DNA of 64,000 bases from Candidatus Bathyarchaeota archaeon (GTDB lineage Archaea > Thermoproteota > Bathyarchaeia > Bathyarchaeales > Bathycorpusculaceae). The position numbers were made by a program, and so were the translations under genes. The stretch is taken from NCBI GenBank assembly GCA_963780185.1, contig CAWABA010000006.1:128001-192000 (forward strand), given 5' to 3'. Under the pieces are notes generated by a model. That model made no database searches. It was not told the origin of the DNA and saw only the letters and a program-made list of their open reading frames with translations. Shown here piece after piece: positions 1,736-41,045 of the stretch (position 1 is the stretch's first letter; every line of letters begins with the position of its first letter).

Positions 1736-2602
1736 TTGATTGACTTGTACAGCAATCAGAAATTGCGTTCGGCTATCGCAGAGGAACCCGTCACCGTTGA
1801 GCTTACCAACCGATTAACAACACGGCTGTACGAAGACACTTTTCCCCGCTGCATGGAAACCGCCTCGCTCCAAAAGGGTCTCGTTCTGACGCTTGACGGT
1901 GAAGAGTTGATAGAGGAGGGGCTTGGCTTTGGAGCTCCAGTCGTGAAGTACCGAGACAAAACCTACTTTTCCAGTTCAGCAGAAATCTCAATTGAAAGAA
2001 CCGCCTCAACCCGCAGGGTCAGCAAAACCTACGTTATGGATGCTGTTTCCAGAAAGAAGTTTTGGCGCGCGACCTACATCGACGACGGCGTCTATTCCTC
2101 GATAAGAAAAACCTTCGCGAAAGCGTATCTCTCCAAAAAGAACCTGTCGCCATACTTCAACGCAGTCATGGAGCTTCGACAGCTAGCGAAGATAAAAACT
2201 GAATTTCTAAAAGTGAAACCCAGAGGCACCGTTACCGTAACGTACGAGGTTAAGCCAACCCAAATTGAAGTCAGCGTTGACTTTTCTGATTTGTCTCTGT
2301 CAAGGTGTGATGAAATCTTGGTTCTAAATGAGCAAGGCTCGTCAGCTTTCCAAAAATACGTTGACGCAAACGGCTTGACACTTTTGGGGCGGGACATCGG
2401 CGCGTGGGATGCGGTGGCGGCGGACTGGGCGTCGTTGGTTAACGTCAAGGGGCAGCTTTCTTTTAGCCTGCGACGGATGCGGGGTGCGAAGCTGTTCAGG
2501 GGTTGGGAACGGACAAAGAACCGTTTTTCATGGGCAGGCTTGAGCTACTCGCTAAAACCCACCTGCGGGACACTGAATTACACGGTAGAACTGGGTTTTT
2601 AG
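1736..2602 (+). CDS. hypothetical protein
   Basis: 288-aa ORF with normal composition. Confidence 0.6.
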   Translation: MIDLYSNQKLRSAIAEEPVTVELTNRLTTRLYEDTFPRCMETASLQKGLVLTLDGEELIEEGLGFGAPVVKYRDKTYFSSSAEISIERTASTRRVSKTYVMDAVSRKKFWRATYIDDGVYSSIRKTFAKAYLSKKNLSPYFNAVMELRQLAKIKTEFLKVKPRGTVTVTYEVKPTQIEVSVDFSDLSLSRCDEILVLNEQGSSAFQKYVDANGLTLLGRDIGAWDAVAADWASLVNVKGQLSFSLRRMRGAKLFRGWERTKNRFSWAGLSYSLKPTCGTLNYTVELGF

Positions 2603-2632
2603 GTGCCCGTTTGGCGATTTGGGTTTGGTGTT

Positions 2633-2953
2633 TTAAGGTTCGATCATTTCTTTTTCGGGTTCGGTGCCTTTTAGGCGTTGCCGCATCGTGTAGATGAAGG
2701 CGATGAACCAGAAGGCGACGCTTACCCAGCCCAGTACGAAGCCGACGATGTTGTTTAGCAGGTAATATGCGATTTGGAAGCCGACCAGCGAGACAAACGT
2801 CAAGAACGAGCCGGTGATGCTGTAGCCGCGCAGTGCGTTTCGGTTTTTGAGGACGGCGCGCAGCATTAGCAGTAGGGCTGTGAAGTTGATGATGCTGGCG
2901 ACGCTTAACGCTAAATCTGCAAGGTTCATCGGCTCAATTTCCCATTGCCACAA
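2633..2953 (-). CDS. small 3-TM membrane protein (PQ-loop/SemiSWEET-like topology)
   Basis: Three hydrophobic helices; GYS motif after helix 1. Confidence 0.55.
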   Translation of the reverse strand: MWQWEIEPMNLADLALSVASIINFTALLLMLRAVLKNRNALRGYSITGSFLTFVSLVGFQIAYYLLNNIVGFVLGWVSVAFWFIAFIYTMRQRLKGTEPEKEMIEP

Positions 2954-3054
2954 CAGCTTTGCCTAACTTAAGACTTACGCCGCCCAGCAAGCCCTGACGT
3001 GCAAAACACCTTAAATCAAGCGGCTCCCAATAGTTATGGCGGAAGAGAGGAAAC

Positions 3055-3198
3055 ATGAAAAAAATTATCTCGCAAGGTTGCGATGGATGTGCTCGAGAAG
3101 AGCCATGCATTAGAACTTATCGACGGGTTTCGTTCGGAGAACAAGTTTACTGCCCAGACGGAACGGTTCATCTCGTAGACGAATCAAGCCTCGCCTAA
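3055..3198 (+). CDS. 47-aa Cys/His small protein, probable zinc binder (not in ORF track)
   Basis: MKKIISQGCDGCAREEPC...YCPDGTVH; GAGAGG RBS and CTTAAAT TATA-like box upstream. Confidence 0.6.
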   Translation: MKKIISQGCDGCAREEPCIRTYRRVSFGEQVYCPDGTVHLVDESSLA

Positions 3199-3342: not shown

Positions 3343-4035
3343 CTAACGAAGAGGCTTCCCGCATCCCTTACAGAATGAAGCCTTTGCCCTGTTCTTTGCG
3401 CCGCAGGACCCGCAAGCCACCTCTGCAGCGGCACCAGCATCGGCGGTTTCATCCCCGAGTTTCTTGCCGCAGCTCTGGCAGTACACCGCGTCCGCGTCGT
3501 TGCAGAAGCCGCAGAAAACGCAGTCAGCCACCGCGGAGCCTTCGCCGTAAAGCGCGGTCCATTTGCCCGTAATCCAAAGCTTGTCCTTCAACGCGTCAAC
3601 CAGCGGAATCAAATCGATCAGCTGGTAAAACTGATCTTCGTCGGGAGCAAATTTCGATTCGCAGTCCCTGCTTAGAATCACGAATTTCGGCGTTTTTCCC
3701 AGAATCAACTTGATTTCTTCGATTTCCTCGTTGGTGTAGACGCAGCTTTTCTTGCTCAGCTTCAAAAGAGCGTCCAGAGACAGATCCTTTGCTTCCTCAT
3801 CAATCGACGGCTTACTTTTCGCCTTCTCCACATACGACCCTATGGGCGCAGGCACCCCGAACGCTGAAGGCATGTAAGAAAGCGTCTCTTCGGTCTCAGA
3901 TTCAAAACGTTCCGCCTTTCCCAAACAAACAATCGCAACACGCCTGTCAGTAAAATAAACATCATACCTAGTGTGAGCATCAACTGGCAAAACAACATCC
4001 TTAACGATTCCCAACAACCTTTCAGAGCTCGACAT
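3343..4035 (-). CDS. PH-like domain protein with C-terminal double zinc ribbon
   Basis: YFTDRRV motif; four CxxC motifs (CVFCG, CQSCG, CGSCG, CKGCG). Confidence 0.7.
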   Translation of the reverse strand: MSSSERLLGIVKDVVLPVDAHTRYDVYFTDRRVAIVCLGKAERFESETEETLSYMPSAFGVPAPIGSYVEKAKSKPSIDEEAKDLSLDALLKLSKKSCVYTNEEIEEIKLILGKTPKFVILSRDCESKFAPDEDQFYQLIDLIPLVDALKDKLWITGKWTALYGEGSAVADCVFCGFCNDADAVYCQSCGKKLGDETADAGAAAEVACGSCGAKNRAKASFCKGCGKPLR

Positions 4036-4124
4036 GCATTGAGTCCCTCATCAAAAGGTTCTTGCTTTCGCTAATTCATAAGGTTTTTTATGGCTTTAGA
4101 CTCGCGGTTCTAATGGGGATAAAC

Positions 4125-4147
4125 TGGTGGATGGGTGGCTTTAAACC
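4125..4147 (-). repeat. degenerate tRNA 3'-end copy (att-like)
   Basis: TGGTGGAtgggtggcTTTAAACC resembles TGGTGGAcaaggggggATTTGAACC of tRNA-Ala. Confidence 0.35.
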
Positions 4148-4220
4148 TCTTTTACTTTTATCCTATTTTTGTTTTTGGCAGGAAAATTTTTTAGGGTAGG
4201 ATTACTCTTTTGTATCTGCA

Positions 4221-4469
4221 GTGAAAATCATGCAAACGTTAGATGTCAGCATAGTTAAAGTTACGCGAAGAGGACAGACGACGATTCCTTTAGAAATCAG
4301 GCAAAAGTGCGGAATCAAAGAAGGCGACAAACTCATAGTCGAACTCACAGAAAAAGGGGTACTGTTCAAGCCAATACGAAAATTGTCTGATATGGCAGGG
4401 ATCGATGCTGGGTACGCGACGGTTGAGGAAGTAAATAAGATGATTGATAAGCTCAGAGAAGAGTACTGA
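4221..4469 (+). CDS. AbrB/MazE/SpoVT-family antitoxin
   Basis: VKVTRRGQTTIPLEIRQKCGIKEGD. Confidence 0.9.
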   Translation: MKIMQTLDVSIVKVTRRGQTTIPLEIRQKCGIKEGDKLIVELTEKGVLFKPIRKLSDMAGIDAGYATVEEVNKMIDKLREEY

Positions 4470-4869
4470 TTTGAAAGAAGTCTTAGACACCCGGGTTTTG
4501 AGAGAGCTCTTCTATTCCGATAAAGCTGAGACAAAAGAGAAAATAAGAAGAAAAATGCAAGCACTTGAAGCTAAATGCGAAGGAATACTGCCAACAATGG
4601 TGATAGCGGAAATCACCCAAATCACTTACACCACGCGCGGAAAAGACATGGCTGAAAGCCGTTATCAAGATTTGGTTCAAAGTGGTTTAGAAATACAAAA
4701 TCTTACTTCGATCATTGCGAAACAAGCAGGTTTTTTCAAGGGCAAATACAGAAATTTGCCCATGGCAGATTGCATAATCGCAGCCACAGCGCTGATGAAC
4801 CATGCAAAAATACTCTCCGACGACCCGCACTTCGACGCCATAGAGGAAATCAAACGTGTCTGGATCTAA
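4444..4869 (+). CDS. vapC: PIN-domain VapC toxin
   Basis: VLDT, IAE, ADCIIAATA and SDDPHF motifs; true start probably TTG near 4471. Confidence 0.9.
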   Translation: MISSEKSTDLKEVLDTRVLRELFYSDKAETKEKIRRKMQALEAKCEGILPTMVIAEITQITYTTRGKDMAESRYQDLVQSGLEIQNLTSIIAKQAGFFKGKYRNLPMADCIIAATALMNHAKILSDDPHFDAIEEIKRVWI

Positions 4870-5875: not shown

Positions 5876-6928
5876 ATGCCCAAGGTTAAAGTTGCATTGA
5901 TCGGCGTTGGAAACTGCGCCTCAGCGTTCATCCAAGGAATTAATTATTACAAGAAATTCAGCAAGCCCGAAGACTTCGTTGGGTTACGCAACCCCACACT
6001 GGCGGGTTTAAGCACAAAAGACATCGAGGTTGTTGCGGCTTTTGATGTTGACGACCGTAAGGTTGGCAAAGACCTCTCAGAAGCCATTTTCGCCGCGCCC
6101 AATAACGCGCCAAAAGTTGCCGACGTGCCCTCTGCAGGTGTTAAGGTTAGCAGGGGTCCGTTGCTTGACGGTTTAGGGAAATTAAGTGAAGCCATCGTGC
6201 AAGTCAGCAAAGCACCTGATGCGGATGTTGTTAAGGTTCTCAAGGCGGCAGGCGCCGAAGTCATGGTTAATTTGCTTCCAAGCGGAGCCACAAAAGCCAC
6301 ACAGTGGTACGCTGAGCAAGCTTTGGCAGCAGGATGCGCTTTTGTGAATGCTACGCCAAACTTCATAGCCAGCGACCCAGCATGGGCGAAAAAGTTCAGC
6401 GACGCAAAAGTTCCGCTTGTCGGCGACGACTTGGTCGATCAGGTTGGCTCAACCGCGTTGCATAAGACGCTGCTTAAGCTGCTAAGCGACAGCGGCGTGA
6501 AAATCGCTGAGACTTATCAGCTTGACGTGGGCGGGGGAACCGAATCCGTGGATACCATGGATCGAAGCCGCGATGCAAAACGCAGCATAAAAACTGAATC
6601 CGTAGCAGCATCACTGCCGTACAAAGCTGAAGTCGTAGCTGGCTCAACTGACTACGTTGATTTTCTGCAAAACAAACGCGACAGCTACTTCTGGATAAGC
6701 GGCGTCTACTTCTGCAATGCCCCGATGAAAATCGACCTCAAATTCCAAACCGTTGACGCGCCAAACGCAGGCAGCGTGCTCTTCGACGTGGTGCGCGCGA
6801 TGAAGTTGGCGCTGAACAAGAAGCTTAAGGGTGCGGTTGAACCTGTTTGCGCTTACGCGTTTAAGCGTCCGCCGCAAGTTGTTTCTATGGAAGTTGCGGA
6901 AAAGGAATTTGCGAAATTCATCGCTTAA
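5876..6928 (+). CDS. ino1: myo-inositol-1-phosphate synthase
   Basis: IGVGNCASA, AFVNATP, GDD and YQLDVGG motifs. Confidence 0.9.
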   Translation: MPKVKVALIGVGNCASAFIQGINYYKKFSKPEDFVGLRNPTLAGLSTKDIEVVAAFDVDDRKVGKDLSEAIFAAPNNAPKVADVPSAGVKVSRGPLLDGLGKLSEAIVQVSKAPDADVVKVLKAAGAEVMVNLLPSGATKATQWYAEQALAAGCAFVNATPNFIASDPAWAKKFSDAKVPLVGDDLVDQVGSTALHKTLLKLLSDSGVKIAETYQLDVGGGTESVDTMDRSRDAKRSIKTESVAASLPYKAEVVAGSTDYVDFLQNKRDSYFWISGVYFCNAPMKIDLKFQTVDAPNAGSVLFDVVRAMKLALNKKLKGAVEPVCAYAFKRPPQVVSMEVAEKEFAKFIA

Positions 6929-37027: not shown

Positions 37028-37091
37028 TGGAGGGCTGGAGAGATTTGAACTCTCGTCTATAACGCCCGAGGCTACAAGCCTAGACCAAGCT
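37028..37091 (-). repeat. direct repeat of the 3' ~64 nt of tRNA-Pro (att site)
   Basis: Near-identical to 40968-41032. Confidence 0.92.
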
Positions 37092-37558
37092 TAGCTATTT
37101 TGTCTTTTGACAAACTCTTTGGGAGTCATTACCTTACCTTTCAAGTTGGGAAGCCTTTCAAAATGCTCTTTGTTCTCGGTCAATAGGACGTCACAGCCCT
37201 CCGCTATGAAGGAGGCAGCGATTACTACATCTTGGTATTCTATCGGCTGCCCCTTTGCGATAAGGTATGCGTTCAGTTGAGCAGTGTGCTTGGCTATCTG
37301 ACCGTTTAATGGGATCCATCGAAATTGACTGAGTACCTGCTCGGCTTTCTTTACCGCGCCAATATAATCCTTCCTTAGGTATGATCCCGTTAATATTTCC
37401 GAAACGCTCACAGTGCTTATAAACGCACTATCAGTACTCGTTAGCTGCTTACAAAGCTCAATAACGTCTTCTCTTCCTCTATCCACATCAACAATTATCG
37501 AGGTATCAACGAATACAGTTTCGAGCTTTCTTTCTGTCTTAGACTTTTTGCCGCTCAA
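37091..37558 (-). CDS. vapC: PIN-domain VapC toxin
   Basis: FVDTS, SEI, QDVVIAA and LTENKEHF motifs. Confidence 0.92.
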   Translation of the reverse strand: MSGKKSKTERKLETVFVDTSIIVDVDRGREDVIELCKQLTSTDSAFISTVSVSEILTGSYLRKDYIGAVKKAEQVLSQFRWIPLNGQIAKHTAQLNAYLIAKGQPIEYQDVVIAASFIAEGCDVLLTENKEHFERLPNLKGKVMTPKEFVKRQNS

Positions 37559-37810
37559 TCAGGGAACCAGCCCAAGACGCTTAAATCTATTTCTTGAGTC
37601 AGAGCGGAGAGATGCCAGCAGCTTTTCGAAGTCCTCGGGCAGAAAGTCAGTACAATCTTTCCAAGCTTCTTCGTTTGCTTTCTCAATCACTATCTTCTTT
37701 CCCTCTACCACCTTCATCTTCACCCTATCGCCCTCCACTATACCCGCTGCTTCACGTATTTCTTTAGGGATTGTGACTTGCGAATGCCTCGTAACGATAA
37801 CTGAATCCAT
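37559..37810 (-). CDS. AbrB/MazE-family antitoxin
   Basis: VTRHSQVTIPKEIREAAGIVEGD. Confidence 0.9.
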   Translation of the reverse strand: MDSVIVTRHSQVTIPKEIREAAGIVEGDRVKMKVVEGKKIVIEKANEEAWKDCTDFLPEDFEKLLASLRSDSRNRFKRLGLVP

Positions 37811-37990
37811 AGTTTGACCACTGCTAATAATTACTGGCATTTCTCACTAATAAGGAATTACTACAATTTAATAGGAAAAAACTTTCTGCGTCTTAAACCA
37901 TGCGATTACTAGCACTTTGCTAATAATTAAGCGGTAACAAGTTTAAAATAGTGATTTCATGCAAATAGGCACAAGGTACGTGCCACTTGA

Positions 37991-39310
37991 ATGTTGGAAA
38001 ATGCCGCTGTTTTCTTAGATAAAATGTCGGGATTCGATTTCGAAGAACTTGTTGCAGATATTCTCAGCAGATTAGGTTACGGGCATGTCGAGAAAATATT
38101 ATTTACTCAAGATGGCGGTAGGGATATTCTAATTCATTCGCCGCAGGGTTTAATCGTAGTGGAATGCAAGCATCAGCCGAAAACTAGTATCGGAAGACCA
38201 ATAGTTCAAAAGTTGCACTCAGCCGTCATCACCTCAAAAGCAGTTAAGGGCATGCTTGTTACAACAGGGCACTTTACTAAAGAAGCGTTGGAGTATGCAA
38301 GGAATCTTGCCAGTACTAATACCCAAATTGATATGATAGACCGGCCTATTCTAATCGATATGGCTTCTCGTGCCAATGTTACCATAGTTAGCGGCAGACA
38401 AAAATTAAGCGTGTGGACTTATTCACTGCCTTCAAGAGATAAAACGGCTTATGCAATATCTTCCCACGTCGCCTCATTCTCGTCAAGCTATCCACGGCAT
38501 CCCAATGAAATGATGAACAACTTAAACAGAGTGATTTCCTATAGACCCGTCTATTCGATAACGTATAACGTAAATAGTGTTTTTGAGACTTCAGTGGGAG
38601 TTGTTCATCGCGAGAGCGCTTCCCACGCTCGACTGTTTCTAGATGGAAACACGGGCTATCTATGTAGCGATGGCATTAGCACTTTTTTGGAGTCGGAACC
38701 TCAGGACGAGTTTAATCAGCCCCATGAAGACTTTGTGGGTGAGTTACCAACTTTCCAGATTGACTCTACGACAATGCAGCGAAGCGCTAAGAAATTTATC
38801 ATAGAAAAACATTCCAAAAACGTCTCCTATTATGGACGTAACAACCAAAGATATGTTAAGGCATGTGTCCCAGGCGAGAGAGAAGTTTACATTAGTGATG
38901 TACGGCAGCTTTACCTTCCTTTAATCAGGATTGATTTCAAATTAGGCTCAACAAGTTATTACACTGAGGGCGCTCAAGCTCCATCTGGACGATTATTGTC
39001 TCAATCAGACAATCTGCGGCAATGCCGAATATGCAATAAGACAATCGTTGCGGGCGCGATTATTTGCGATACGTGTGGGAAAACGACCCATTCAGGAGGC
39101 TTTTTAATCAGTTCCATCCATGGCTTCAAATGCAAAATTTGTGGTCGAACTACTTGCCGGGAGCACGGATCTTGGAGACGAAAATACTTAATTCTTAAAG
39201 AAATGGTTTGCCCAGCATGCTTTGGAGATCTTAAAAATAATAATCTTGGGTTTAGGCGATTCGAAGCTTTTGACAATCAAACTCCTCTATGGAAGAGCTT
39301 ATTCAATTAA
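37991..39310 (+). CDS. Mrr-like (PD-D/ExK) restriction endonuclease with C-terminal multi-Cys zinc region
   Basis: FEELVA, DGGRDI, VECKH and VTTGHFT motifs; several CxxC at the C-terminus. Confidence 0.88.
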   Translation: MLENAAVFLDKMSGFDFEELVADILSRLGYGHVEKILFTQDGGRDILIHSPQGLIVVECKHQPKTSIGRPIVQKLHSAVITSKAVKGMLVTTGHFTKEALEYARNLASTNTQIDMIDRPILIDMASRANVTIVSGRQKLSVWTYSLPSRDKTAYAISSHVASFSSSYPRHPNEMMNNLNRVISYRPVYSITYNVNSVFETSVGVVHRESASHARLFLDGNTGYLCSDGISTFLESEPQDEFNQPHEDFVGELPTFQIDSTTMQRSAKKFIIEKHSKNVSYYGRNNQRYVKACVPGEREVYISDVRQLYLPLIRIDFKLGSTSYYTEGAQAPSGRLLSQSDNLRQCRICNKTIVAGAIICDTCGKTTHSGGFLISSIHGFKCKICGRTTCREHGSWRRKYLILKEMVCPACFGDLKNNNLGFRRFEAFDNQTPLWKSLFN

Positions 39311-39500
39311 ACTTTTGTTCGTGTCTTAAAATGAATGCTCGAGATTTTTGGTCGGGCTTCCCAGATTTGAACCAGCCTATAGGCTGATTCATTTTTTCTA
39401 AAAAGAGTTACTATTTCAGTGTGCGGAAATAATACAGGAAAACTTATCTCGTGTAAGGAACCATACAGATAAAGAGAAAATCTAGAAACAGTGGGAAGAA

Positions 39501-40391
39501 ATGAGCGATCTGTCAAAGATACTCGAATACTTGCGTGATATTGTTAGTGCACCCATCTTGAACATCATAATAATAGCCGGAATTATTTTCGCCTTTGTTT
39601 CATTTTTTAGTTTTAATGGACTGAGTAATTTTAGGTTACAGGTAAACCCGAATTTAATTATGTTCGCAACAGGATGCGTGTTAATTTGCTCTGGAATAAG
39701 TGTATATGCGGTAACTAGAGAAATAGAAAGAGGTTCAAGAGCGGCAAAGATTAAAGACGGATTAAAGTTCAAACTTGGACGAACCACAGTCATTTTGAGA
39801 AAGGGAAAAATTCAAGACGCTGCTGGCTTAGATAGAGAGACAGCAGTTGTACTTCCTGTCAATACAACATTCGTCGACGATTGCACTTCAGATAAAAGGA
39901 GTGCGACCGGCGCATACATTCTGGAATTTTACCCGAATGAACTATCAAAAATCCAGCAAGTAATGAATGAGCAATTGGAAAAACTTGGCTACCGTAAAAC
40001 CGGAAATGGCACATTAACTCCGGGAACCACGATACTTCTACCTTCGCCCTATGACACGCCCGCTAAAGTGTTGATGACTGCATCTACCTTTAGAGAAGAA
40101 AAAGTGGGAATCAAAGCTGAACCAAATATTATTTGCGATTGTGTGGGAAAAATATTCGAATTCACCGCTGACAAGAAGATCAGTAAATTCCGTATGCCCG
40201 TCTTAGGTAGCGGTCATGGAGGCTTAGATATAAACGAAGCTTTAGCACTACTGATGATTAGCATCAAATATTACTCTGAAAATTCATTCCACCACGTAAA
40301 GCAGACGGAAATCATAATTATGGAAAATGATATATCCAAATTAAGAGAATGTTGTATACAGTACTTTGCAACTTTGGGGGAAAATAAATGA
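39501..40391 (+). CDS. 2-TM + macrodomain protein (Thoeris type II ThsA-like)
   Basis: Two N-terminal TM helices; GKIQD, VVLPVNTTF and MPVLGSGHGGL motifs. Confidence 0.75.
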   Translation: MSDLSKILEYLRDIVSAPILNIIIIAGIIFAFVSFFSFNGLSNFRLQVNPNLIMFATGCVLICSGISVYAVTREIERGSRAAKIKDGLKFKLGRTTVILRKGKIQDAAGLDRETAVVLPVNTTFVDDCTSDKRSATGAYILEFYPNELSKIQQVMNEQLEKLGYRKTGNGTLTPGTTILLPSPYDTPAKVLMTASTFREEKVGIKAEPNIICDCVGKIFEFTADKKISKFRMPVLGSGHGGLDINEALALLMISIKYYSENSFHHVKQTEIIIMENDISKLRECCIQYFATLGENK

Positions 40392-40756
40392 TAGTGTACC
40401 ACTATACCGAAGAGAGAGCATATAATGAGATAATAGAAACAAATGAGTTTAAGCCTTCTAATTTTTCCACATCATTAGATTGCACTTATGGAGAAGGTTG
40501 GTATTTCACAGATTTAACTCCCAATATGTCCAACCAAGAATTATGCCAATTATGGGGTCAACTCGTACCCAAAAGAACTAGATTCTACTTAGAATTTGAT
40601 GTAGACCAAAGCTTTCTTCAAAACACACGTTCACATGTTTATAGATTTCCATTGAACAGTTTGAAGGAGCCTGTCATCAGATTGGATTTTCACTATCATT
40701 TACAAAATTTTCCTGAGAAAATAGTGCTTAAACATACGAGAAAAGGTAGAAGATAA
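40388..40756 (+). CDS. HYD1-signature ADP-ribosyltransferase-fold protein
   Basis: YHYT...EII...YGEGWYFTDLTP...YLEF; ATGA overlap with the upstream gene. Confidence 0.75.
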   Translation: MIVYHYTEERAYNEIIETNEFKPSNFSTSLDCTYGEGWYFTDLTPNMSNQELCQLWGQLVPKRTRFYLEFDVDQSFLQNTRSHVYRFPLNSLKEPVIRLDFHYHLQNFPEKIVLKHTRKGRR

Positions 40757-40967
40757 GTGCATCTCCTTTAACTTTGGCCACCGGACCGTTGATCAAGTTA
40801 AATTCTCATCAGGTGAAATTAAGTCAAACAGAATGGCAAATATTCCATCCCCTTTGTCCCCTTCACTCGACTAACTGCCAATTACTCTGGCTTAAAGTGA
40901 TACTTTCTAACAACAGTTATAAAAATAATTATTTTTGAAACTGAATGAATTTTTCGGAATAGACATT

Positions 40968-41045
40968 TGGTGGGGCTGGAGAGATTTGAACTCACGTCTA
41001 TAACGCCCGAGGCTACAAGCCTGGACCAAGCTAGCCGACAGCCCC
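40968..41045 (-). tRNA. tRNA-Pro(CGG), CCA encoded
   Basis: GGGGCTG/CAGCCCC acceptor stem, CTCGGGC anticodon loop, TTCAAAT T-loop; one mismatch each in D and T stems. Confidence 0.88.

Follow-up and report, generated by a model that had tools for sequence, protein, structure and literature searches.

A conserved two-gene module of a ThsA-like membrane macro protein and a stand-alone HYD1-family predicted ADP-ribosyltransferase, a candidate NAD+-dependent defence system of archaea and bacteria

To our knowledge, every signalling defence system described so far that uses nicotinamide adenine dinucleotide (NAD+), that is, Thoeris types I to IV, relies on a TIR enzyme. A 64,000-nucleotide (nt) stretch of the Candidatus Bathyarchaeota archaeon contig CAWABA010000006.1 (assembly GCA_963780185.1, positions 128,001 to 192,000; hereafter the window) raises the question of whether another enzyme could take this place. 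It carries two overlapping genes, the first encoding a membrane protein with a macro domain of the type found in the Thoeris protein ThsA (gene 1) and the second a small, stand-alone member of the HYD1 family of predicted ADP-ribosyltransferases (ARTs; gene 2). Both open reading frames (ORFs) and their ATGA overlap lie exactly where an initial annotation, made from the DNA letters, had placed them. We find that macro and HYD1 genes of this kind are one conserved, horizontally mobile module associated with defence genes. The initial annotation had suggested that the pair might be an undescribed archaeal system. The first part of this suggestion stands, as a full-text literature search (main texts only; supplementary tables could list it) found no description of an operon combining a transmembrane (TM) macro protein with HYD1, and the module is apparently undescribed; the second part does not, as most loci are bacterial and come from at least eight named phyla.

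Profile searches place gene 1 with ThsA, and a fold search recognises its macro domain. As the initial annotation had it, the protein begins with two TM helices (hydrophobic stretches at residues ~10-42 and ~50-72, corresponding to helices 19-33 and 52-86 in the AlphaFold2 model, whose mean predicted local distance difference test score (pLDDT) is 85.5) and continues with a macro domain containing the motifs GKIQD (102-106), VVLPVNTTF (116-124) and PVLGSGHGG (233-241). It passes the Pfam model ThsA_Macro, PF20016 (expectation value (E) 1.1e-6; 29 bits, cut-off 25; residues 112-273), and scores 16.8 bits with the general Pfam model Macro, under the cut-off of 22. The PADLOC ThsA1 model PDLC00413 covers residues 22-281, that is, the TM and macro parts together (E 3.2e-9). 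With Foldseek, the globular part of the model matches OiMacroD (E 1.4e-8), the ThsA structure 8r66_A (E 4.8e-8; TM-score 0.72), macroH2A and EcThsA (8v6r), and the macro domains of macroH2A and PARP14 rank among its best fold matches. When the family profile (28 members) is compared with the PDB, the best solved relatives are again Thoeris ThsA proteins, 9uuz_A (E 5.1e-6) and 8r66_A (E 7.6e-6), aligned over residues 88-282.

The sequence of gene 1's macro domain suggests a sensor and not a hydrolase. The motif set of the MacroD/YmdB enzymes (the NAAN...GGG[VLI]D loop bearing the catalytic Asp, the GDI Asp and the G[VI][YF]G loop) is absent, and gene 1 carries LPVNTTFVDDCTSDKRSATGA and GKIQ instead. 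In place of the glycine loop that holds this Asp, it has D126-D127-C128...D131...T136, with T136 at the position of the MacroD catalytic Asp. The Asp of GDI that contacts adenine corresponds to K103, a position occupied by K, R, E or Q across the family, and the second phosphate loop reads GSGHGG where MacroD has STG[VI][YF]G. According to the accessible part of the Sabonis preprint, the MacroD Asp is also missing from the ThsA macro domain. In the family alignment, the invariant polar residues of the macro domain are C128, D131, H239 and H265, the two-TM module has the invariant small residues S34 and G58, and there is no invariant Lys.

Gene 2, a 122-residue protein, passes the Pfam model Tox-ART-HYD1, PF15633 (E 1.3e-10; 42.2 bits, cut-off 25), the sole Pfam family that it matches, and it contains the signature from which this family had been predicted (YHYT at 4-7 and YGEGWYFTDL at 34-43). 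All of 42 HYD1 relatives share H5, D31 and Y39; 38 of them retain R81, and 34 have an acidic residue (D or E) at position 71. The AlphaFold2 model of gene 2 (pLDDT 93.6) yielded nothing with Foldseek at E <= 1e-3, and the comparison of the HYD1 family profile with solved structures gave a chance-level match only. The exhaustive structural search VIA-align, by contrast, retrieved 3aq3_A (Z 8.6), Tpt1 (6.8), CC0527 (6.7), KptA (5.8), Tne2 (5.6), TreTu (5.2), MbcT (5.2), Scabin (5.0) and DarT1 (4.9), followed by PARPs and classical toxins; ParT and RES toxins are likewise among the matches, and most of the best 50 rows bear ART-fold names, as judged from entry titles. The predicted ART fold rests on the Pfam match, on the middling VIA-align scores (Z <= 8.6) and on this run of ART names, which we find persuasive. 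Tpt1/KptA and MbcT are ART-fold enzymes that yield small ADP-ribose (ADPR) products.

The macro-paired HYD1 proteins form a divergent subfamily, since they score 27-42 bits and align with Pfam model positions 1 to ~73-85 of 97 only, whereas the most distant relatives, which are tips of PT-HINT and RHS proteins, match the full model with 92-107 bits. Two of the distant relatives, P0098 and P0105, are found in PT-HINT or RHS contexts. Gene 2 is a stand-alone ORF and does not have the context of a polymorphic toxin, in which it would be the C-terminal domain of an Rhs, HINT or secreted protein with an immunity gene beside it; a search for longer fused forms of it found none, which counts for little. 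In some stand-alone HYD1 relatives, the C-terminus is a hydrophobic tail that probably anchors them in the membrane (2 of 74 HYD1 ORFs), and in others it is a Cys-rich CxxxxC...CxxC tail (P0042, P0056, P0073, P0075; L007:5670-6140, L040:607-1059). A complex prediction for the macro domain of gene 1 (residues 84-296) with gene 2 scored 0.00, and we weigh it neither way.

The gene-neighbourhood search that had been suggested as a check revealed that the pairing recurs. On the macro side, where 25 loci from species-representative genomes were found with an alignment of gene 1 relatives, a HYD1 gene lies directly downstream in 14, and on the HYD1 side, where a scan of metagenome contigs gave 56 loci, 47 have a TM-macro ORF directly upstream on the same strand; since both scans used short peptide patterns from the GSGHGG macro/HYD1 clade, these fractions describe that clade and not all HYD1 or ThsA_Macro proteins. 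Two of the nine misses on the HYD1 side (L043, L051) have no upstream DNA. Canonical TIR-paired ThsA proteins fall outside the sampled set. The two scans together gave 61 pair loci, among which 56 HYD1 sequences are distinct; loci L004 and L005 are one contig filed in two bins. The macro-to-HYD1 junction measures -26 to +25 nt in 57 of 64 cases, 15 of which have the identical 4-nt overlap. Chance adjacency of the two genes is ruled out by the pairing counts. Among the 53 macro proteins of a quick maximum-likelihood tree (IQ-TREE), the 44 HYD1-paired ones lie on one side of a branch with a Shimodaira-Hasegawa-like approximate likelihood ratio test (SH-aLRT) support of 99. Besides the host genome, pairs occur in two further archaeal lineages, represented on the macro side by metagenome-assembled genomes of Methanobacteriota and Methanoperedenaceae. 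The bacterial hosts on that side are Dehalococcoidia, a deltaproteobacterium, Elusimicrobiota, Planctomycetota, Omnitrophota, Thermodesulfobacteriota, candidate division FCPU426, Treponema and one unclassified.

Variant loci provide further information on how the two parts of the module may work. A complete gene of the MacroD/YmdB type directly adjoins the pair in 8 pair loci, and a HYD1 gene in L043; the four such genes that were scanned match Pfam Macro with E 1e-39 to 5e-49, and all eight aligned copies have the full NAAN...GGGV[DA]GAI and ISTG motifs. Therefore, in some loci, a hydrolase is supplied separately by an optional third gene. In three distinct loci (L004, which is the L005 contig, L011 and L047), one TM-macro gene is accompanied by two HYD1 genes; in L028, two macro genes flank a single HYD1 gene. 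HYD1 genes also exist without an adjacent macro gene; the orphans L033 and L036 have an intact His, and the L037/L038 copy reads YYYT, its catalytic His being changed to Tyr.

In a sister clade of the GSGHGG macro proteins, the macro gene is followed by a DUF1810 or OGFr_N gene and not by HYD1. These combinations look like further undescribed macro-based two-gene modules; the solved relative of the DUF1810 partner is Rv1873 (2jek, E 8e-34). The N-terminal module of the sister-clade macro proteins is either a two-TM segment, TIR_2 or a CAP12/Pycsar-type TIR domain, the identity of the TIR domains being confirmed by Pfam in L019 (TIR_2) and L025 (CAP12-PCTIR_TIR) and judged from N-terminal sequence and length in the other loci. 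Since TIR domains replace the TM helices, the macro domain is one with exchangeable N-terminal modules. As far as sequences can tell, such swapping on a single macro domain is the usual pattern of a sensor joined to exchangeable effectors.

Defence genes recur beside the pair, including those for BrxL and a KAP NTPase (L008), HerA and a DNA methylase (L010), type I HsdR (L013) and a phospholipase D (PLD) protein (L015), and a DNA-methylase-like gene recurs in 8 loci. Some pair loci lie among ordinary metabolic genes (L003, L009, L017-type surroundings). No TIR family is recurrent among the neighbours of the 61 pair loci. In L010, a 358-residue protein with a weak TIR_2 match (25 bits, cut-off 28) is encoded ~200 nt upstream of the pair (3726-4802), the only such case.

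In the window, the pair belongs to a 3.9-kb islet bracketed by a 60-nt direct repeat with 97% identity between its copies, one of which lies within a tRNA-Pro gene (Table 1). The host genome is archaeal, the Rfam clan competition having been won by the archaeal small subunit rRNA model with 1472 bits. The earlier description of an AT-rich, tRNA-Pro-integrated islet with Mrr and VapBC genes agrees with our data: the islet has a GC content of 0.40 and the gene pair one of 0.37, compared with 0.46 and 0.49 in the flanks, and the full ORF content consists of PIN, MazE, Mrr, TM-macro and HYD1 genes. The end of the VapC ORF coincides exactly with the left repeat copy. Despite the att-like repeat, the islet (37032-41045) has no integrase ORF. 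The absence of a TIR gene from the islet was likewise borne out by the ORF list and Pfam, and of the two TIR_2 matches in the whole genome, one is ~292 kb distant on the same contig and the other lies on a different contig. The sole canonical Macro gene of the genome is ~206 kb from the pair.

The HYD1 family is present in 1 of 61 genomes, namely the host genome, and in none of its 60 relatives. Among the matches listed in a DNA search of 40 same-genus genomes, the gene pair is unmatched; only the tRNA, VapBC-like, Mrr-like and flanking genes are represented, and there is no clean empty tRNA-Pro site, so that insertion of the islet is argued from the repeat and the GC content. Elsewhere in same-genus genomes, there is VapBC-like and Mrr-like DNA of 69-79% identity. 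In the archaeal cases (the host genome, L002 and L007), the module seems to have been acquired horizontally, on a mobile islet.

Table 1. Coordinates of features in the window (positions without prefix) and in related loci (L-numbers)
Feature	Position	Strand	Remarks
Left copy of the 60-nt direct repeat, left islet border	37032-37091	none	Duplicated 3' part of tRNA-Pro
PIN-domain (VapC-type) toxin gene	37091-37558	-	Pfam PIN, E 2.7e-10
MazE/AbrB-type (VapB-like) antitoxin gene	37559-37840	-	Pfam MazE_antitoxin, E 1.1e-12
Mrr-type restriction nuclease, Cys-rich C-terminal part	37991-39310	+	Pfam Mrr_cat, E 1.9e-26; PADLOC mREase_IV, E 6e-14, and PDC-S02
Gene 1, two N-terminal TM helices and C-terminal ThsA-type macro domain (~88-282)	39501-40391	+	296-residue ORF
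ATGA start/stop overlap of genes 1 and 2 (translational coupling)	40388-40391	+	ATG 40388-40390, TGA 40389-40391
Gene 2, stand-alone HYD1-family predicted ART (H5, Y39, D71)	40388-40756	+	122-residue ORF
tRNA-Pro(CGG), predicted integration target	40968-41045	-	Holds right repeat copy, 40973-41032
Soluble MacroD/YmdB-type Macro genes	L002:2444-2977, L006:351-989, L008:6264-6815, L011:1894-2406, L016:6272-6775, L043:358-921, L047:4730-5302, L057:2587-3108, L063:306-536
HYD1 paralogue pairs	L004:5893-6270 and 6324-6758; L011:111-485 and 1459-1836; L047:4001-4387 and 4413-4778
Two macro genes around one HYD1 gene	L028:753-1652 and 2120-3151
OGFr_N (PF04664) partner genes	L017:5926-6474, L020:1568-2260, L022:3818-4354
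DUF1810 (PF08837) partner genes	L019:5721-6161, L021:5685-6149, L023:5633-6058, L024:5741-6172, L018:504-884
Macro proteins with N-terminal TIR_2 or CAP12/Pycsar-type TIR, no TM helices	L019:4593-5687, L021:4614-5678, L024:4629-5693, L025:1587-2885, L026:4374-5672
HYD1 orphans, no adjacent macro gene	L033:904-1242, L036:1331-1618, L037:4001-4363, L038:527-889		46-62% identity to gene 2 (tblastn)

Type II Thoeris is the known system that the pair most resembles in its predicted working. Gene 1 has the ThsA architecture of this type, with two TM helices and a ThsA_Macro domain, and the pair is likewise a two-gene, predicted NAD+-linked operon of defence islands, with several copies of the small enzyme in some loci; Thoeris loci carry several ThsB genes per ThsA, as the accessible part of a preprint reports (10.64898/2026.01.22.701046). 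The partner of gene 1, however, is an ART-fold HYD1 protein, and no TIR-domain ThsB gene is adjacent. According to the same part of that preprint, a TIR gene belongs to each of the four defined Thoeris types, and a pair that has none is therefore not Thoeris by definition. In line with the earlier expectation that PADLOC would detect no full system, a ThsA model was found for gene 1 and no model for gene 2. No paper dealing with HYD1 and Thoeris together was found in the full-text literature, in which PF15633 is named for type VI secretion system toxins. The ligand may also differ. The type II ThsA macro domain binds histidine-ADPR (His-ADPR) as its signal, according to the accessible part of the Sabonis preprint, and gene 1's clade departs from ThsA at conserved pocket positions, with GxIQ for GDI, invariant C128 and D131, and GSGHGG, so that its ligand is probably not His-ADPR.

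Other systems share single features with the pair. Like DarTG, it combines an ART-fold gene with a macro-domain gene in defence contexts, and DarT1 and DarTG structures match gene 2 at the fold level (Z 4.9 and 4.4; DarT structures 4.0-4.9). Unlike DarTG, gene 2 is a HYD1 protein with no DarT family match, and gene 1 is membrane-anchored, has no DarG-type C-terminal domain and scores 12.2 bits (E 0.079; cut-off 250) with the NCBIfam model antitoxin_DarG. In addition, darT precedes darG in DarTG, an order that is reversed in the macro/HYD1 pair. With the Tox-ART-HYD1 polymorphic toxins, such as Photorhabdus Tre23, gene 2 shares the Pfam family and the H-Y-D/E signature, but those are C-terminal tips of Rhs/PT-HINT proteins with dedicated immunity proteins. 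In Tre23, H8 and Y33 are the putative catalytic residues, as stated in the accessible part of PMC8661411. The RES-domain defence protein aRES, which produces ADPR-1P (preprint 10.64898/2026.01.28.702374, accessible part), is likewise an ART-superfamily enzyme of anti-phage defence whose small ADPR derivative is handled by macro-domain enzymes; as described there, it differs from the pair in acting via NAD+ depletion and in that its macro-domain partner is a phage counter-defence phosphatase and not a host membrane protein.

We propose, with a probability of about 50% and by analogy with type II Thoeris, that the pair is an NAD+-dependent, Thoeris-II-like abortive-infection system in which an ART replaces the TIR enzyme. 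The small HYD1 ART would be inactive until infection is sensed, and would then use NAD+ to make an ADP-ribose-containing ligand, which could be an ADPR conjugate in free form or a macromolecule that carries ADP-ribose. The macro domain of gene 1, which is predicted to be non-hydrolytic and whose fold and similarity to ThsA are apparent from the searches above, may bind this ligand; the two TM helices would in response damage the membrane, killing or arresting the cell and so stopping the virus. In EcThsA, a buried cleft binds ADPR, and the membrane may be perturbed through nucleotide-induced oligomerisation, as Shi et al. proposed (Sci Adv 2024, accessible part). An ART-superfamily enzyme with a small ADPR product has a precedent in aRES, and Tpt1/KptA and MbcT are among the fold matches of gene 2. 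Where present, the adjoining MacroD-type hydrolase may clear the ligand and keep the system off.

Several observations weigh against such a signalling role. The HYD1 toxin Tre23 is lethal and ADP-ribosylates 23S rRNA, as reported in the accessible part of PMC8661411. The third catalytic acid of the ART is found in just the 34 of 42 relatives counted above, and gene 2 has no obvious sensor domain. A scan of viral contigs with the HYD1 alignment found no relative, and hence no link to phage counter-measures, and PHROGs contains no family for gene 1 or gene 2. On the side of gene 1, the hhalign alignment of its family to MacroD-type proteins that underlies the residue correspondences has a low probability of 2% (E 0.022), although the motifs are plainly absent from the sequence, and the invariant C128, D131, H239 and H265 could form a non-canonical catalytic site. 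The macro-first, ART-second order with its translational coupling also fits a classical antitoxin-toxin operon, and the clade-derived search patterns limit what the co-occurrence fractions can tell.

Some of these points would be accommodated if the pair were a DarTG-like toxin-antitoxin system, a reading that we consider rather unlikely. The HYD1 ART toxin would then modify an essential RNA, DNA or protein, the membrane-tethered macro antitoxin would remove the modification, with its invariant polar residues as a possible active site, or sequester the toxin, and infection or stress would free the toxin. The antitoxin-first gene order with a 4-nt overlap, the presence of a proven toxin (Tre23) among the HYD1 relatives and of DarT, ParT, MbcT and RES toxins among the fold matches, and the VapBC pair already in the islet are all consistent with it. 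Yet neither gene matches its DarTG counterpart, gene 1 has neither MacroD motifs nor an invariant Lys, a TM antitoxin would be unusual, and an antitoxin role hardly accounts for sister proteins in which the same macro domain bears TIR modules. Nor does this reading sit easily with the two ART genes per macro gene in three distinct loci, the separate, complete MacroD hydrolase adjoining 8 pair loci, or the orphan HYD1 genes with intact His. The Thoeris-like logic fits better than the antitoxin logic because effector modules are exchangeable on the same macro domain, several ART genes accompany one macro gene in some loci, a hydrolase is supplied separately in some, and an orphan ART with intact His exists without a macro gene; the comparative evidence, drawn from sequences, thus leans towards signalling over toxin-antitoxin.

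It is unlikely, in our estimation, that the ART itself is the main effector, ADP-ribosylating gene 1 itself or else a protein or nucleic acid of the virus, with the membrane macro protein only localising, regulating or reporting the modification and killing nothing. Modification of macromolecules is usual for ARTs, including every characterised fold relative of gene 2, and macro domains read protein-linked ADP-ribose, those of macroH2A and PARP14 being among the best fold matches of gene 1. The hydrophobic C-terminal tail of a few HYD1 relatives may also place them at the membrane with the macro protein, but only 2 of the 74 HYD1 ORFs have it, and the conserved two-TM module with its invariant S34 and G58, together with its replacement by TIR domains in the sister proteins, points to gene 1 as the effector. 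Least of all do we expect a housekeeping or stress module outside defence, for example one for ADP-ribosylation signalling at the membrane, with mobile islets as no more than its vehicle. The loci among ordinary metabolic genes and the failure of PADLOC, PHROGs and viral contigs to provide a match for gene 2 would suit it; the patchy distribution (1 of 61 related genomes), the location in a tRNA-integrated, low-GC islet, the repeated defence-gene neighbours and the near-identical architecture across distant phyla all speak against it.

A wider extension of the Thoeris-II-like reading is possible, and we put it forward as a speculation that is more doubtful than the reading itself. ART-fold enzymes could form a second class of enzymes that produce immune messengers from NAD+, independently of TIR domains. 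The GSGHGG macro clade would then be a general ligand sensor that is combined with one or another killing module (2TM or TIR) and with at least three different small partner enzymes (HYD1 ART, DUF1810 and OGFr_N). If so, both the Rv1873-like proteins and the domain conserved in the opioid growth factor receptor of animals would have their roots in ADP-ribose-based immunity.

If the TM-macro/HYD1 pair does signal, immune signalling in prokaryotes would gain a new class of enzyme and probably also a new molecule derived from ADP-ribose. If the pair is a toxin-antitoxin system, it would represent a new, membrane-tethered form of antagonism between an ART and a macro domain. Under either reading, archaea and many bacterial phyla possess a compact two-gene system that is directly testable.

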